A stretch of DNA of 64,000 nt from the IMG/VR virus record IMGVR_UViG_3300037189_005453, positions 1 to 64,000 of that record; one strand, 5' to 3'. The notes beneath the pieces are model-generated. The model was not told where the DNA came from, did not search any database, and saw only the letters and a program-made list of their open reading frames with translations. Positions 675 to 28,792 of the stretch are shown piece after piece (the stretch's first letter is position 1; each line of letters opens with the position of its first letter). The position numbers were made by a program, and so were the translations under genes. This DNA comes from a virus.

Positions 675-697
675 TTTATTCTCCTTCTTGTTATTTG

Positions 698-782
698 CGG
701 TTTAGGTAAGATTCGAACTCACGGTAGCTTTCACTACAACAGTTTTCAAGACTGCCACCTTCGGCCACTCGGTCACTAAACC
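698..782 (-). tRNA. tRNA-Ser(TGA)
   Basis: Acceptor GGTTTAG/CTAAACC, anticodon loop CTTGAAA, long variable arm GTAG-TGAAAG-CTAC, GTTCGAATC T-loop, discriminator G; followed by CAA so CCA is not encoded. Confidence 0.93.
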
Positions 783-825
783 TGGTAACTACACCAGTGC
801 GTTTACATACATGGGTGTAGCTCCG

Positions 826-905
826 TGGATCTGCTCAGAATCGAACTGAGGTCTTACAGCGCTCCCTCTCGGGCTTTCACTGCAATCGAAACCATTCTCA
901 GACCC
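826..905 (-). ncRNA. minimal tmRNA-like RNA (tRNA-like domain only, no tag reading frame)
   Basis: GGGTCTG/CAGATCC-A acceptor with G3.U70 and A73; tmRNA-type D-loop TGGTTTCGA; GAC-CTCAG-TTCGATT-CTGAG T-arm; only about 32 nt between D-loop and T-arm. Confidence 0.8.
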
Positions 906-910
906 TAGAT

Positions 911-951
911 GCTGGGCAGAGGCAGAAAGGAGGGAAAGACCTCTGCCCAGC
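911..951 (-). other. 12-bp hairpin with anti-Shine-Dalgarno-like loop
   Basis: GCTGGGCAGAGG/CCTCTGCCCAGC stem; minus-strand loop TCTTTCCCTCCTTTCTG. Confidence 0.7.
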
Positions 952-972
952 TACTTTTATACTACACGGTTG

Positions 973-1500
973 TTACTGAATGTCAATCTTCTTTGGCAGC
1001 AAAGCCTCGGGGATTTCATTCTTGCATACAACCATGAGTACGCCGTCCTCCATAGTAGCCTGCTTTACTTCAACATACTCCGAGAGTGCGAAGTTCAGCT
1101 TAAAGGCGCGCTTGGCGATGCCCTGATAAAGAACCTCGGTACCAGACTTCTTGATCTGATTCTCCGTAGGAATCTTCGCATCTGCGGCGGTGGCGATGGT
1201 AAGCGTCTGATCTACGACGCTGATCTCGATCTCATCCTTCTTGAAACCAGCCAGGGCCACGTCGATCATGTACGTGTTACCGTGCTTAGTAACGTTGTAC
1301 GGAGGGTACGACGGAGCTTTGCTGTCCGTGAGGGACTTGAGAGTAGCGAACACTGGATCGAACCCAATTGACCAACGGTCAAGATTGGGGAACAGTGTGT
1401 CGATGGTGGGTTTGGGTGGGGTGTCGTTCTTCCACTTTTTGATCTCATCCTCTTTGCGACGGGGTGGGAACTGGTCGTGGGGGTTGACAATGTAATTCAT
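973..1500 (-). CDS. hsp20: small heat shock protein (Hsp20/IbpA family)
   Basis: SYPPYNV, ALAGF, YQGIAKRAF, MEDGVL, PKKI alpha-crystallin motifs; AAGGAG RBS. Confidence 0.95.
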   Translation of the reverse strand: MNYIVNPHDQFPPRRKEDEIKKWKNDTPPKPTIDTLFPNLDRWSIGFDPVFATLKSLTDSKAPSYPPYNVTKHGNTYMIDVALAGFKKDEIEISVVDQTLTIATAADAKIPTENQIKKSGTEVLYQGIAKRAFKLNFALSEYVEVKQATMEDGVLMVVCKNEIPEALLPKKIDIQ

Positions 1501-3017: not shown

Positions 3018-3269
3018 TTAGCGTCCAATCAGCTTCTTGAAAAACTGCTTACGGTTAAGAGTCTTCTGCATGTGCTCAGAAAGGACCTCGTCCTTAATGG
3101 AGCGGCCATCGTGAGGATGCGCCTCGTGGTGTTCGTCGAGATCGGTCCCGTACTGGAGATTGTCCTCGTGCGAGTGGTGCTCGCTGTATGGGGCGTGGGC
3201 CCAGCCATCGCCTGCTGCAACAACCTCGGTTTTGCAGGATGCGCACTTTGCTGGTTCAAGAATAGTCAT
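3018..3269 (-). CDS. hypothetical protein, paralog of 3308..3754
   Basis: PAKCASC...GWAHA...PHDGRS; probably leaderless. Confidence 0.7.
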   Translation of the reverse strand: MTILEPAKCASCKTEVVAAGDGWAHAPYSEHHSHEDNLQYGTDLDEHHEAHPHDGRSIKDEVLSEHMQKTLNRKQFFKKLIGR

Positions 3270-3307
3270 AGATCAAGTTTCCCACATCTGCAGGGGCGTT
3301 TTAAGGC

Positions 3308-3754
3308 TTAGTTGCCCCTGTTGGGGGGACCGTAGGTGTTTGGGCGTTTTTTAAAAGGTTTGAACTGGTGGCCAAGGTTACCCCTGTCGTCCAGATCTGG
3401 ACGACCAAGAATCTCGTTGTACTTTAGCTGAGGGTTCATAACCATGCTAGATCCGTACTTCTCGTAGGCGTTTAGATCCATGGCGGCGAGGTGTTGCTCT
3501 ACAGACCGACCGTCTCGAGGCGATGGCTCGTGATCCTCGTCAGCTTCCTGATCTTCAATGTCAGCTTTATTGTGACGAGCAATAAGCTCTTCTTTGGATA
3601 CTTTCTCTCCTGGAGCAACAATGTCTGGGGTGGCATGAGCGTGTGTCCATCCTGAAGGGTACTCCAGGTCACCTGAGAATGCGTGGATGTTTCGTCCACA
3701 AGAAGCACAGCGTGCTGGACCAAGGGCACCGTTGGAATTAAACTCTAAAGCCAT
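3308..3754 (-). CDS. hypothetical protein, paralog of 3018..3269
   Basis: PARCASC...GWTHA...PRDGRS; probably leaderless. Confidence 0.7.
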   Translation of the reverse strand: MALEFNSNGALGPARCASCGRNIHAFSGDLEYPSGWTHAHATPDIVAPGEKVSKEELIARHNKADIEDQEADEDHEPSPRDGRSVEQHLAAMDLNAYEKYGSSMVMNPQLKYNEILGRPDLDDRGNLGHQFKPFKKRPNTYGPPNRGN

Positions 3755-4193: not shown

Positions 4194-4625
4194 ATGATCG
4201 TCAGTAAAGCATTACTCACTAGTAAGACAGAAGATTGGGCAACCCCCGATGTGCTGTTTGCTGAGTTGGATGCTGAGTTTAGCTTCACTTTAGATGTGTG
4301 TGCTGACAAGACCAATAATAAGACCCCCGCGTTTTTTGATAAAGAAACTGATGGACTATCCCAGCCTTGGACTGGAGTGTGCTTTATGAATCCCCCGTAC
4401 GGCCGCACCATAGGCTTGTGGGTCAAGAAAGCGTATGAGTCCAGCCTCGAGGGGGCTACTGTAGTCTGCCTAGTTCCTTCGCGCACCGATACGGCATGGT
4501 GGCATGACTACGCCATGAAGGGTGAGCTTCGTTTTATCCGCCGACGTTTGAAGTTTGTTGGCAGTGATGGCGTTCGTCGTGAAGCGCCCTTTCCTTCGGC
4601 CATCGTGATCTTTCGGCCCATTTAG
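4194..4625 (+). CDS. phage DNA N6-adenine methyltransferase (Dam-like)
   Basis: DWATP, FTLDVCA, catalytic NPPY, VPSRTDTAWW, PFPSAIVIF. Confidence 0.93.
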   Translation: MIVSKALLTSKTEDWATPDVLFAELDAEFSFTLDVCADKTNNKTPAFFDKETDGLSQPWTGVCFMNPPYGRTIGLWVKKAYESSLEGATVVCLVPSRTDTAWWHDYAMKGELRFIRRRLKFVGSDGVRREAPFPSAIVIFRPI

Positions 4626-17575: not shown

Positions 17576-19054
17576 CTAGCCTTCTAGGTTGTTCTGGATA
17601 ATTCTGGTTGTTTGATCCTCATTCAGAGGCTGTTGCATCTCCTTTAGAGCACTTGCTCGGTCTCCAAAAATAGCACTTAGCACGCCGCCAGAACTCTCTC
17701 GAGACGCGGTGATTTGTACAAACTCTTTGTCGGTTTCTAGGTCCTTCATGTTACCTACCAACTTAAACAAGCGGTCTATCTCCTGTGACACATTTGGGTC
17801 AGCGTAGCCGCCATTTAGCTCCTCTTGGAATCGCATGAATGCCACCCTTTGGCCCTGCATTTCAACGATTGTGGTCAACAACGCTTTCAATTGATCCTTT
17901 GTCTTAACCTCCACTGGCAGGTTAAATCCACAGGTACTTGCGGCCTTGAATGCTGGACAATTTGCTGCGACAAAACACGTGTCGCATTGTCTTACGCTCC
18001 CATAATTGGACTGAACAACTGGTACGTCCTTTAATACTTCACGCCCATCTTCGGTCTCTACAACGGTCTTCATGTTGTATCCAAAAACAGGCATCGAAAT
18101 GACCTCTTGCGGGTCTCTTTGCGTAACTTCTGCTCCTTCAGGTTTCCGCTTTTCTAAACCACTGTTATTAGAAACCACCCCCCCTATTTCCATCAAACCT
18201 GTGTATAGGGTGTCATCACTGTTATCAGATACTTTATCGTTATTGGGTCGCTTTGCCATTGTCTTCTCTAACTGTAAATAGGACCAAACTGCTACTTTGG
18301 TTGCTTCCTTCGTGTCATCTTCTACGAACTTTGTGAAATCTAGCCCAGCTTTCTCCACGACTGTTTTGTAACGCAACCGTGCCTGGGCCTTCATTTTTTT
18401 TGGATACCTGGCCAATCTCGCTCCGTCGTACACAATGGTTTCTCCATTACGCATTGGCGACAACCAGGACAACGTGCTGACAGAATCAAACGGGATGCTT
18501 CGCAAATTATCTGGTTTTGCGGTCCCCAATCCGTGAATGCGTACATCGTACGCTCCTTTGATCCTACGGATTACGCTCGATAACACTGGCACACTATCAA
18601 TCGCTGCGCCAGAAATGGCTACATTGCTCCACTCTGCCGCCCACTGTTCCAACAACGGAACACTGTACGCTTCGTGCCAAACTACCCACAATTTTGGATC
18701 GTTTTCATACACTGCGCGGTTTTGCACAATGTCGTGCAATCCCAATACTTGTGAATCAAATTCGGTGAACCCCTCGATGCGGTCGTAATTCATCGCGATG
18801 AACTCTTCGTAATCCGACGCGTAGGCTTCCAACTCTCCTTTGGACAGGTTGGCTTTGTCTGCCTGCGTTGCTCCGCTATCTACCCAAACTTTCATCTCTG
18901 GCAGGAAATGCTCACCAATCAGGTACGGTTTTGTTTTTGGCAAACCACGCTTACGGAGGCCCCAGTAATTCAACATTACGTTGTTTACTCCCATGGACTC
19001 CAACAGCGTCCTGTTGCTGGGGATTTCTACCCCACTAAAAATGATCTCACTCAA
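17576..19054 (-). CDS. TGT/DpdA-like (queuine tRNA-ribosyltransferase fold) domain fused to a Cys4/helical C-terminal domain
   Basis: VWVDSGA, VVWH, RIHGLG, PFDSVSTLSW; C-terminal CDTC..NCP..C. Confidence 0.7.
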   Translation of the reverse strand: MSEIIFSGVEIPSNRTLLESMGVNNVMLNYWGLRKRGLPKTKPYLIGEHFLPEMKVWVDSGATQADKANLSKGELEAYASDYEEFIAMNYDRIEGFTEFDSQVLGLHDIVQNRAVYENDPKLWVVWHEAYSVPLLEQWAAEWSNVAISGAAIDSVPVLSSVIRRIKGAYDVRIHGLGTAKPDNLRSIPFDSVSTLSWLSPMRNGETIVYDGARLARYPKKMKAQARLRYKTVVEKAGLDFTKFVEDDTKEATKVAVWSYLQLEKTMAKRPNNDKVSDNSDDTLYTGLMEIGGVVSNNSGLEKRKPEGAEVTQRDPQEVISMPVFGYNMKTVVETEDGREVLKDVPVVQSNYGSVRQCDTCFVAANCPAFKAASTCGFNLPVEVKTKDQLKALLTTIVEMQGQRVAFMRFQEELNGGYADPNVSQEIDRLFKLVGNMKDLETDKEFVQITASRESSGGVLSAIFGDRASALKEMQQPLNEDQTTRIIQNNLEG

Positions 19055-28348: not shown

Positions 28349-28792
28349 TTAGTAAGCGGCCTGAATACCAGATTCGAAGTTCGGGTTAGTACGGCCCTGT
28401 ACAGAAGGAATGACACGGGCGTTAGCCATTGTCGGACCTGCTGCGGGGTCAACCTGAACGAACGTCGACTTGGGCTGAACGCGGAAAGTAGCACCAATAT
28501 TTTCAATGTTGGCACGGTTCTGCTTTGAACCTGCACCTGTAGGATCAGCAGACTTGACGTTTTTGCGAGGCATCTGAGTGCCTGCAGTAGGCATAACAGG
28601 GGTAAAGGAGGGCATGTTGCTCTCCGCTGCTCCTACAGAAATGCGGTGGCTGCCAGCTGCAGCTGCCTGTGCGTGAGCCTCATCTGAGGTCTGGTGTGAA
28701 CGTGCCATGCTGGTACCTGCTGCTTCCAAAGGGTTTGAGGGGATTCCGCTACGACGACGCATTGCGTGTCCCACACTGTACTGAGTTGCCAT
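28349..28792 (-). CDS. hypothetical protein
   Basis: AAGGAG RBS, -10 TATCCT upstream. Confidence 0.8.
   Translation of the reverse strand: MATQYSVGHAMRRRSGIPSNPLEAAGTSMARSHQTSDEAHAQAAAAGSHRISVGAAESNMPSFTPVMPTAGTQMPRKNVKSADPTGAGSKQNRANIENIGATFRVQPKSTFVQVDPAAGPTMANARVIPSVQGRTNPNFESGIQAAY

Follow-up and report, generated by a model that had tools for sequence, protein, structure and literature searches.

A stretch of 80 nt on the minus strand of the window encodes the tRNA-like domain (TLD) of a tmRNA, with alanine identity and without an mRNA or tag domain. The window is the 64,000-nt stretch analyzed here, positions 1 to 64,000 of the IMG/VR virus record IMGVR_UViG_3300037189_005453. The structure of this mini-tmRNA is conserved, with compensatory base changes, across a family of phage genes, and its position beside a tRNA-Ser gene is shared with cultured Streptomyces phages. 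TLD-only phage tmRNAs are already known as a kind from Mycobacterium phage DS6A, and the phage represented by the window is another lineage that carries one. We consider it probable, at roughly 65%, that the gene is a stand-alone TLD of the DS6A family which competes with host tmRNA and blocks ssrA tagging. The coordinates of the gene, its parts, and its neighbors are collected in the table.

Table. The mini-tmRNA gene and neighboring features in the window (all on the minus strand)
Feature	Position	Strand	Basis and remarks
Mini-tmRNA (TLD-only, CDS-less tmRNA)	826..905	-	80 nt; sequence, fold, RF00023 alignment, R1 model, covariation
Acceptor stem, 5' strand GGGUCUG	899..905	-	Partner CAGAUCC at 827-833; G3:U70 wobble
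D-loop AGAAUGGUUUCGA, tmRNA-type, stemless	886..898	-	RF00023 alignment
P2a helix, 8 bp	878-885 with 854-861 (span 854..885)	-	Fold and RF00023 alignment
P2a cap: internal loop AAAG/AG and CCC-GAGA-GGG hairpin	862-877	-	Fold
GAC linker	851-853	-	Sequence, fold, RF00023 alignment
T arm CUCAG-UUCGAUU-CUGAG	834-850	-	Sequence, fold, RF00023 alignment
tRNA-Ser(UGA)	697..782	-	ARAGORN; RF00005 52.4 bits; no encoded CCA
Spacer between mini-tmRNA and tRNA-Ser, predicted hairpin	785..825	-	MFE fold of 690-975
13-bp hairpin with 15-nt loop, just upstream of mini-tmRNA	911..951	-	MFE fold
Sigma-70-like promoter match TTGACA-16-TAGTAT	959..986	-	Consensus scan, 10/12 positions; overlaps hsp20 stop
hsp20 (small heat shock protein), upstream of mini-tmRNA	973..1500	-	Pfam HSP20, E 1.6e-12

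The minus-strand sequence given in the initial annotation, read from 905 to 826, agrees exactly with the window. All seven acceptor pairs form, G1-C72, G2-C71, and G3:U70 among them, the discriminator A73 is base 826, and the gene does not encode CCA, the next bases being CGG. The 13-nt D-loop lacks a conserved D stem and ends at its 3' side in GGUUUCGA; a GG(A/U)UUCGA motif in this loop runs into P2a, the strands of which are UUGCAGUG and CGCUGUAA, and the GAC linker precedes the T arm. The central arm consists of 8 bp, an internal loop, 3 bp, and a tetraloop. The single-sequence minimum free energy (MFE) fold gives this structure with all three helices intact, at -29.9 kcal/mol and z = -2.68, values that on their own are modest to weak support. 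There are 16 nt between the P2a strands, and the RNA contains no pseudoknot, tag frame, or resume codon; ARAGORN found no tag. The 3' strand of P2a contains GCG CUG UAA, which we weighed as a short hidden tag but discarded, as it lies inside a helix and is not kept in homologues. In comparison with full-length tmRNA as represented by RF00023, P1, the D-loop, P2a, GAC, the T arm, and the alanine identity align position by position with the window RNA, whereas PK1, the resume codon, the tag frame, and PK2-4 are absent from it. The mini-tmRNA can therefore neither add a tag nor provide a stop codon.

With the 87-base stretch around the gene scanned alone, tmRNA was the best family of the tRNA clan. 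The alignment to RF00023 was global, running end to end (model positions 1-374, 42.2 bits, E 2.5e-16), and covered P1, the D-loop, P2a, GAC, and the T arm, with about 294 consensus positions deleted, 6 nt in their place, and the D-loop set against the consensus GAucuGGaUUCGA. The score is 4.8 bits below the Rfam gathering cutoff of 47 bits. Among the other phage mini forms, BRock (64.5 bits) and pSt2308 (61 bits) lie above this cutoff and DS6A (43.2 bits) lies below it. RF00023 gave no match at the mini-tmRNA in whole-window scans or in a permissive 401-base scan, and an Rfam scan of the window at gathering thresholds reported tRNA-Ser alone. ARAGORN called tRNA-Ser(UGA) and nothing else in the window, and RF00005 (E <= 0.01) found nothing besides tRNA-Ser in the whole 79.5-kb record. 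Cloverleaf features, meaning a D stem and an anticodon arm with a 5-bp stem and a 7-nt loop, are absent. The mitochondrial tmRNA family RF02544 was not listed for the mini-tmRNA, and clan competition in the output may hide a weaker match; the window gene is viral and in standard order, and RF02544 genes are organellar and usually permuted. These results show why routine annotation misses such genes: ARAGORN depends on a tag, the tRNA model does not fit, and a match to the Rfam tmRNA model appears only when speed filters are off, at a score near or below the cutoff.

A scan for the 5' half (GGGTCTG...GGTTTCGA) returned 116 matches, of which 109 were chance occurrences in coding DNA, 5 were mini forms, and 2 were full-length tmRNAs, and a pattern scan of bacterial genomes returned mostly the 3' ends of genuine tmRNAs. 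By blastn, the 80-nt sequence matched only the T arms of ordinary tRNAs among cultured phages. Full-length phage tmRNAs at loci L281 (378 nt) and L345 (409 nt), for which ARAGORN predicts tag peptides, have the acceptor stem and D-loop of the mini-tmRNA, so the mini forms plausibly arose by internal deletion from such genes. The phage tRNA array at L345, which carries this full-length tmRNA, also contains a tRNA with anticodon UUA (4230-4306), a putative ochre suppressor.

We collected the wider family by two pattern scans of IMG/VR, a structural filter, and a covariance model (R1) built from seven sequences, the window mini-tmRNA and six homologues. The window mini-tmRNA scores 91.1 bits on R1, and the family has at least 45 members of 70-89 nt among the matches listed. 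In an alignment fitted to the model (44 distinct rows), standard pairs fill 98.2% of cells, compared with 37-52% in controls with slid partners. Cells changed on both sides numbered 284, against 82.7 in shuffles, and compensatory changes were found in 15 of 19 pairs, including double changes in all seven modeled pairs of P2. The T stem is 100% paired across the family, with four of its five pairs covarying. RNAalifold, run on an unfitted MAFFT alignment of seven homologues, recovered the same helices and the inner hairpin, with compensatory changes in 13 of 22 pairs. The covarying homologues that the initial annotation had proposed to look for thus exist, and its structural reading, an alanine-acceptor tmRNA TLD with no tag domain, is borne out by the RF00023 alignment (global, if below the cutoff), the covariation, RNAalifold, and the match to DS6A; an ordinary tRNA, named there as the reading to exclude, fits worse, with no match by ARAGORN or RF00005.

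A set of positions is nearly fixed. G1-C72, G2-C71, and A73 are invariant among the matches listed, and G3:U70 is present in 42 of 43 distinct members, while acceptor pairs 4-6 covary freely. The D-loop end GGUUUCGA is near-invariant, and the D-loop and GAC features are kept in 45 members among the matches listed. The exception at the third pair is locus L126 (898-976), the sole member with A3:U70, which sits in a 14-tRNA array with only 1-2 nt to the tRNA on either side; this variant may be uncharged or decaying. The base after A73 (window base 825) is C in all 43 distinct members, and the full CCA is encoded in 19 only. The constancy of C74 is not an ascertainment effect, since neither the model nor the search patterns cover this position, and it may reflect a requirement of 3' processing.

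Some further loci are of note. At L037 (2976-3318), ARAGORN called a tmRNA of 343 nt, to which it assigned an implausible tag of 30 residues. The 3' part of this call contains a whole mini-tmRNA of 82 nt (3234-3315), including a 5' acceptor strand of its own, so that the call may reflect either duplication of the 5' half or a false extension. Near-identical 82-83-nt TLD-only tmRNAs occur in four Candidatus Poribacteria metagenome-assembled genomes (L143:1361-1443, L151:5102-5184, L165:4114-4196, and L215:2390-2471), with one copy on a 4.8-Mb contig. Both Poribacteria genomes searched also have a full-length tmRNA (189 and 183 bits with RF00023, against 71 and 68 bits for the mini copies), and the mini copies could be either chromosomal or prophage borne.

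The initial annotation held that described actinophage tmRNAs are full length. That statement is contradicted by DS6A, whose tmRNA was classed as "TLD only" by Hudson, Lau & Williams (2014, PMC4131195); since it is published as such, the kind was already known, and the novelty claimed for the window RNA was overrated. In the 2025 database of Williams et al. (PMC11915505), there are 79 phage tmRNAs, and the class "standard, no CDS" comprises nine in all, from RefSeq viruses. R1 matched the DS6A RNA over its full length (28478-28557, 54.6 bits, E 1.3e-13). Like the window RNA, it is phage encoded and about 80 nt long, with a complete TLD that includes G3:U70 and A73, a short hairpin capping P2, no tag frame, and no encoded CCA. 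Both share the inner module GAAA(G/A)CC...GG(A/U)AC, their RF00023 scores are close (43.2 and 42.2 bits), and one covariance model finds both. They differ in the cap, a GAGA tetraloop in the window and GCACGC in DS6A, in lineage, the window phage being a myovirus distantly akin to BRock-like Streptomyces phages and DS6A a temperate siphovirus, and in neighbors, which are tRNA-Ser and hsp20 for the window gene and, on either side, gp33 and the DNA polymerase III gene for that of DS6A. By sequence and predicted structure, the two RNAs belong to the same family. DS6A also encodes an RtcB-like RNA ligase (gp76, JN698994.1 49300-50502), with an RNA-repair or translation-maintenance function. CDS-less tmRNAs are also described from organelles, in jakobid and oomycete mitochondria (RF02544) and in Mallomonadaceae plastids (~65 bp) (PMC11915505). 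These resemble the window RNA in being TLD-only and without a tag frame and are conserved together with SmpB, but most are encoded by two-piece genes in circular permutation, and they provide ribosome rescue for the organelle itself, whereas the window gene is viral.

The record encodes a tail sheath, a family A DNA polymerase, and a helicase, and its nearest cultured relatives are the Streptomyces phages BRock, Alone3, LuckySocke, GiJojo, and pSt2308, with 34-36% identity in DNA polymerase and about 31% in the sheath. R1 found one full-length match each in BRock (60.2 bits), pSt2308 (54.9 bits), and Alone3 (41.2 bits). In these three phages, the mini-tmRNA is unannotated and has tRNA-Val(UAC) on one side and tRNA-Ser genes on the other, all on the same strand. 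The window order agrees, with tRNA-Ser(UGA), the sole tRNA of the record, 43 nt downstream of the mini-tmRNA on the same strand; the Streptomyces carriers, in contrast, have large tRNA arrays. The mini form is the sole tmRNA-like gene in BRock, pSt2308, and Alone3, and searches found no full-length tmRNA in these three, in DS6A, or in the window's record. The same four complete carriers and the record contain no SmpB gene either, and so the partner would have to be the SmpB of the host.

A blastn search with the BRock copy extended the set to eight cultured Streptomyces phages (BRock, pSt2308, Alone3, LuckySocke, GiJojo, Tomas, Naboo, and Riptide), in which the site is unannotated or covered by a hypothetical protein. 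In architecture these orthologues agree with the window gene, and they are followed directly by same-strand tRNA-Ser genes. The acceptor stem of the Alone3 copy, GGGUCUG/CAGAUCC, is identical to that of the window, and this copy has two T-stem mismatches and a lower score. The actinophage copies, DS6A included, share the inner module GAAAGCC-GCAYGC-GGAAC, and CCA is encoded in none of them. Two current annotations overlap or adjoin these genes: in GiJojo (PP725410.1 17025-17102) a "hypothetical protein" (gene 44) is drawn over the mini-tmRNA, and in BRock (KX925554.1 96957-97037) a tRNA-Cys is drawn beside it, on the opposite strand of an otherwise one-strand tRNA array. A short form at a syntenic spot across about 35% DNA polymerase identity indicates a conserved gene and not a recent deletion relic; the prospect, raised in the initial annotation, that all homologues might carry a full tag domain is at odds with what the nearest cultured relatives have at this spot.

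How the gene is transcribed can be judged in part from its surroundings. The initial annotation placed it in a probable hsp20-to-tRNA-Ser cotranscript. The promoter match and the 13-bp hairpin lie between hsp20 and the RNA, so that such a cotranscript is one possibility only; the gene could be transcribed either from a promoter of its own or by read-through out of hsp20. The hairpin is not followed by a U-run and hence is not a canonical terminator. The promoter match is weak, as the region holds two such sites where chance alone would give 1.1. The predicted spacer hairpin is possibly a processing element. A related-locus search with hsp20 gave one distant locus without synteny, and tblastn of 10 neighboring ORFs against all loci returned two unrelated hsp20 genes only. 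Elsewhere in the window, a queuine tRNA-ribosyltransferase-like gene (17576-19054, minus strand; phrog_887, E 2e-67) probably encodes a DpdA/Tgt-type enzyme for 7-deazaguanine DNA modification, and together with a Dam-type adenine methylase gene (4194-4625, plus strand; Pfam Dam, E 1.5e-27) it suggests that the phage modifies its own DNA.

Across the family, same-strand tRNAs adjoin 14 of the 45 members collected. A different setting, among head genes, is found at L003:3166-5462, L019:9084-10437, and L111:3081-5497 and also at L007, L009, L077, L022, and L078. In the related L003-type phages, the mini-tmRNA sits in the head morphogenesis module between the prohead protease and major capsid genes. 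In loci of other lineages it adjoins the portal gene: at L111 the RNA is immediately upstream of this gene, and members of the same portal cluster are found within 3 kb of the RNA at L022 and L078. There are no tRNAs near the mini-tmRNA at these head module and portal loci. When the ORFs lying up to 3 kb from 49 family members were clustered, no partner protein emerged that is common to different lineages.

Trans-translation is the main bacterial ribosome rescue pathway and an antibiotic target. In tmRNA, the alanyl-tRNA synthetase (AlaRS) recognizes G3:U70, and SmpB binds the elbow of the TLD and P2a. From the features that the window RNA retains, we infer a course of events that begins with its transcription with, or just upstream of, tRNA-Ser. 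RNase P would cut at G905, the 3' end would be trimmed, and the host CCA-adding enzyme would complete the molecule. Host AlaRS would then charge it by way of G3:U70 and A73, and host SmpB would bind at the D-loop/T-loop elbow and P2a. In this form, the mini-tmRNA would compete with host tmRNA for SmpB and probably also for EF-Tu and stalled ribosomes. As it has no message, proteins from stalled ribosomes would remain without an ssrA degradation tag, and host trans-translation would be blocked or short-circuited during infection.

The two functions suggested in the initial annotation, an SmpB decoy and a rescue RNA that adds no tag, are both reasonable. A functional parallel comes from E. coli, where a DS6A-like TLD-only molecule, chargeable or not, is reported to inhibit tmRNA strongly, perhaps via SmpB titration (Mao et al. 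2009, RNA Biol 6:355, as cited in PMC4131195 and PMC11915505). The idea of an SmpB decoy fits this inhibition as those two papers summarize it, and competition with host tmRNA is most likely the role of the window RNA, by analogy with that one experiment. Since inhibition is reported there to occur with no need for charging, pure titration of SmpB does not explain the near-invariant G3:U70 and A73. The strict alanine identity suggests instead that both charging and access to the ribosome are required of the RNA.

A serious rival, though a considerably less probable one, is that the RNA performs a productive rescue without tagging. An alanine-charged TLD together with SmpB would enter the stalled ribosome and accept the nascent chain, and either drop-off together with peptidyl-tRNA hydrolase or an alternative release factor would then free the ribosome, with no tag added. 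The phage would gain when host nucleases or its own takeover make nonstop mRNAs. Such a role has been proposed for the CDS-less tmRNAs of jakobid mitochondria. The near-invariant alanine set (including G3:U70 in 42/43 and C74 in 43/43) points to selection for charging, of which a pure sponge would have no need, and many members lie in tRNA arrays or late head gene modules, among translation-supporting or highly expressed genes. The conservation of mitochondrial and plastid CDS-less tmRNAs together with SmpB (PMC11915505) points the same way. On the other hand, no release factor, peptidyl-tRNA hydrolase (Pth), or ArfB-like partner recurs beside the RNA, and we know of no mechanism that would clear a peptidyl-TLD from a ribosome without a message. 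Moreover, the DS6A-like molecule inhibited tmRNA in E. coli and did not replace it, according to the account in PMC4131195. More broadly, and only as a tentative proposal, the family might constitute a widespread phage system of tagless rescue or anti-tagging, not a simple SmpB sponge, which guards phage nascent proteins or counters host defenses that create nonstop ribosomes; the near-invariant alanine set, the ever-present C74, the tRNA arrays, and, in some phages, the position between protease and capsid genes would be in keeping with this.

The remaining explanations are all unlikely. Phage tRNA-like RNAs are thought to counter tRNA-cleaving defenses, and the RNA, which is often in tRNA arrays, might be a decoy, charged or uncharged, for a factor other than SmpB, such as a tRNA-targeting defense nuclease, AlaRS, RNase R, or an Ala-tRNA-dependent transferase. 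There is also a precedent for tmRNA fragments as part of an anti-CRISPR complex (PMC11662646). The parts that are conserved, however, are specific to tmRNA (the GGUUUCGA of the D-loop, the GA...GAC junction, and P2a) and are not generic tRNA features, which makes a decoy of this type quite improbable.

More improbable still is a decaying relic, a functionless phage tmRNA whose middle was recently deleted. The acceptor stem does recur in full-length tmRNAs of phages, and the mismatches and lower score of the Alone3 copy and the A3:U70 of L126 could be taken as signs of decay. But the three helices are intact in the window, the compensatory changes among the 44 distinct sequences mean that selection acts on the short form, the inner module is kept in actinophage copies including DS6A, and the syntenic short form is found in phages with only about 35% DNA polymerase identity. 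Least credible is an unusual tRNA(Ala)-like gene or tmRNA-derived attachment site fragment unrelated to SmpB: the tRNA-like acceptor stem and T arm, the adjacent tRNA gene, and the use of 3' fragments of tmRNA genes as attP by phages (PMC9004378) would agree with it, but the RNA has no anticodon arm or D stem and fits tmRNA best in its clan, it retains its 5' half as well as its 3' half in perfect pairing, unlike an attP fragment, and the window's record contains no tyrosine integrase, which counts against an attP.

Taken together, a known kind of mini-tmRNA, for which the literature names DS6A as its one phage example, is now tied to at least eight cultured Streptomyces phages that are amenable to testing in nonpathogenic hosts. 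If the RNA does compete with host tmRNA as proposed, it would be a compact natural phage RNA directed against, or around, trans-translation, which would make it a useful tool and mark a site of phage-host conflict.
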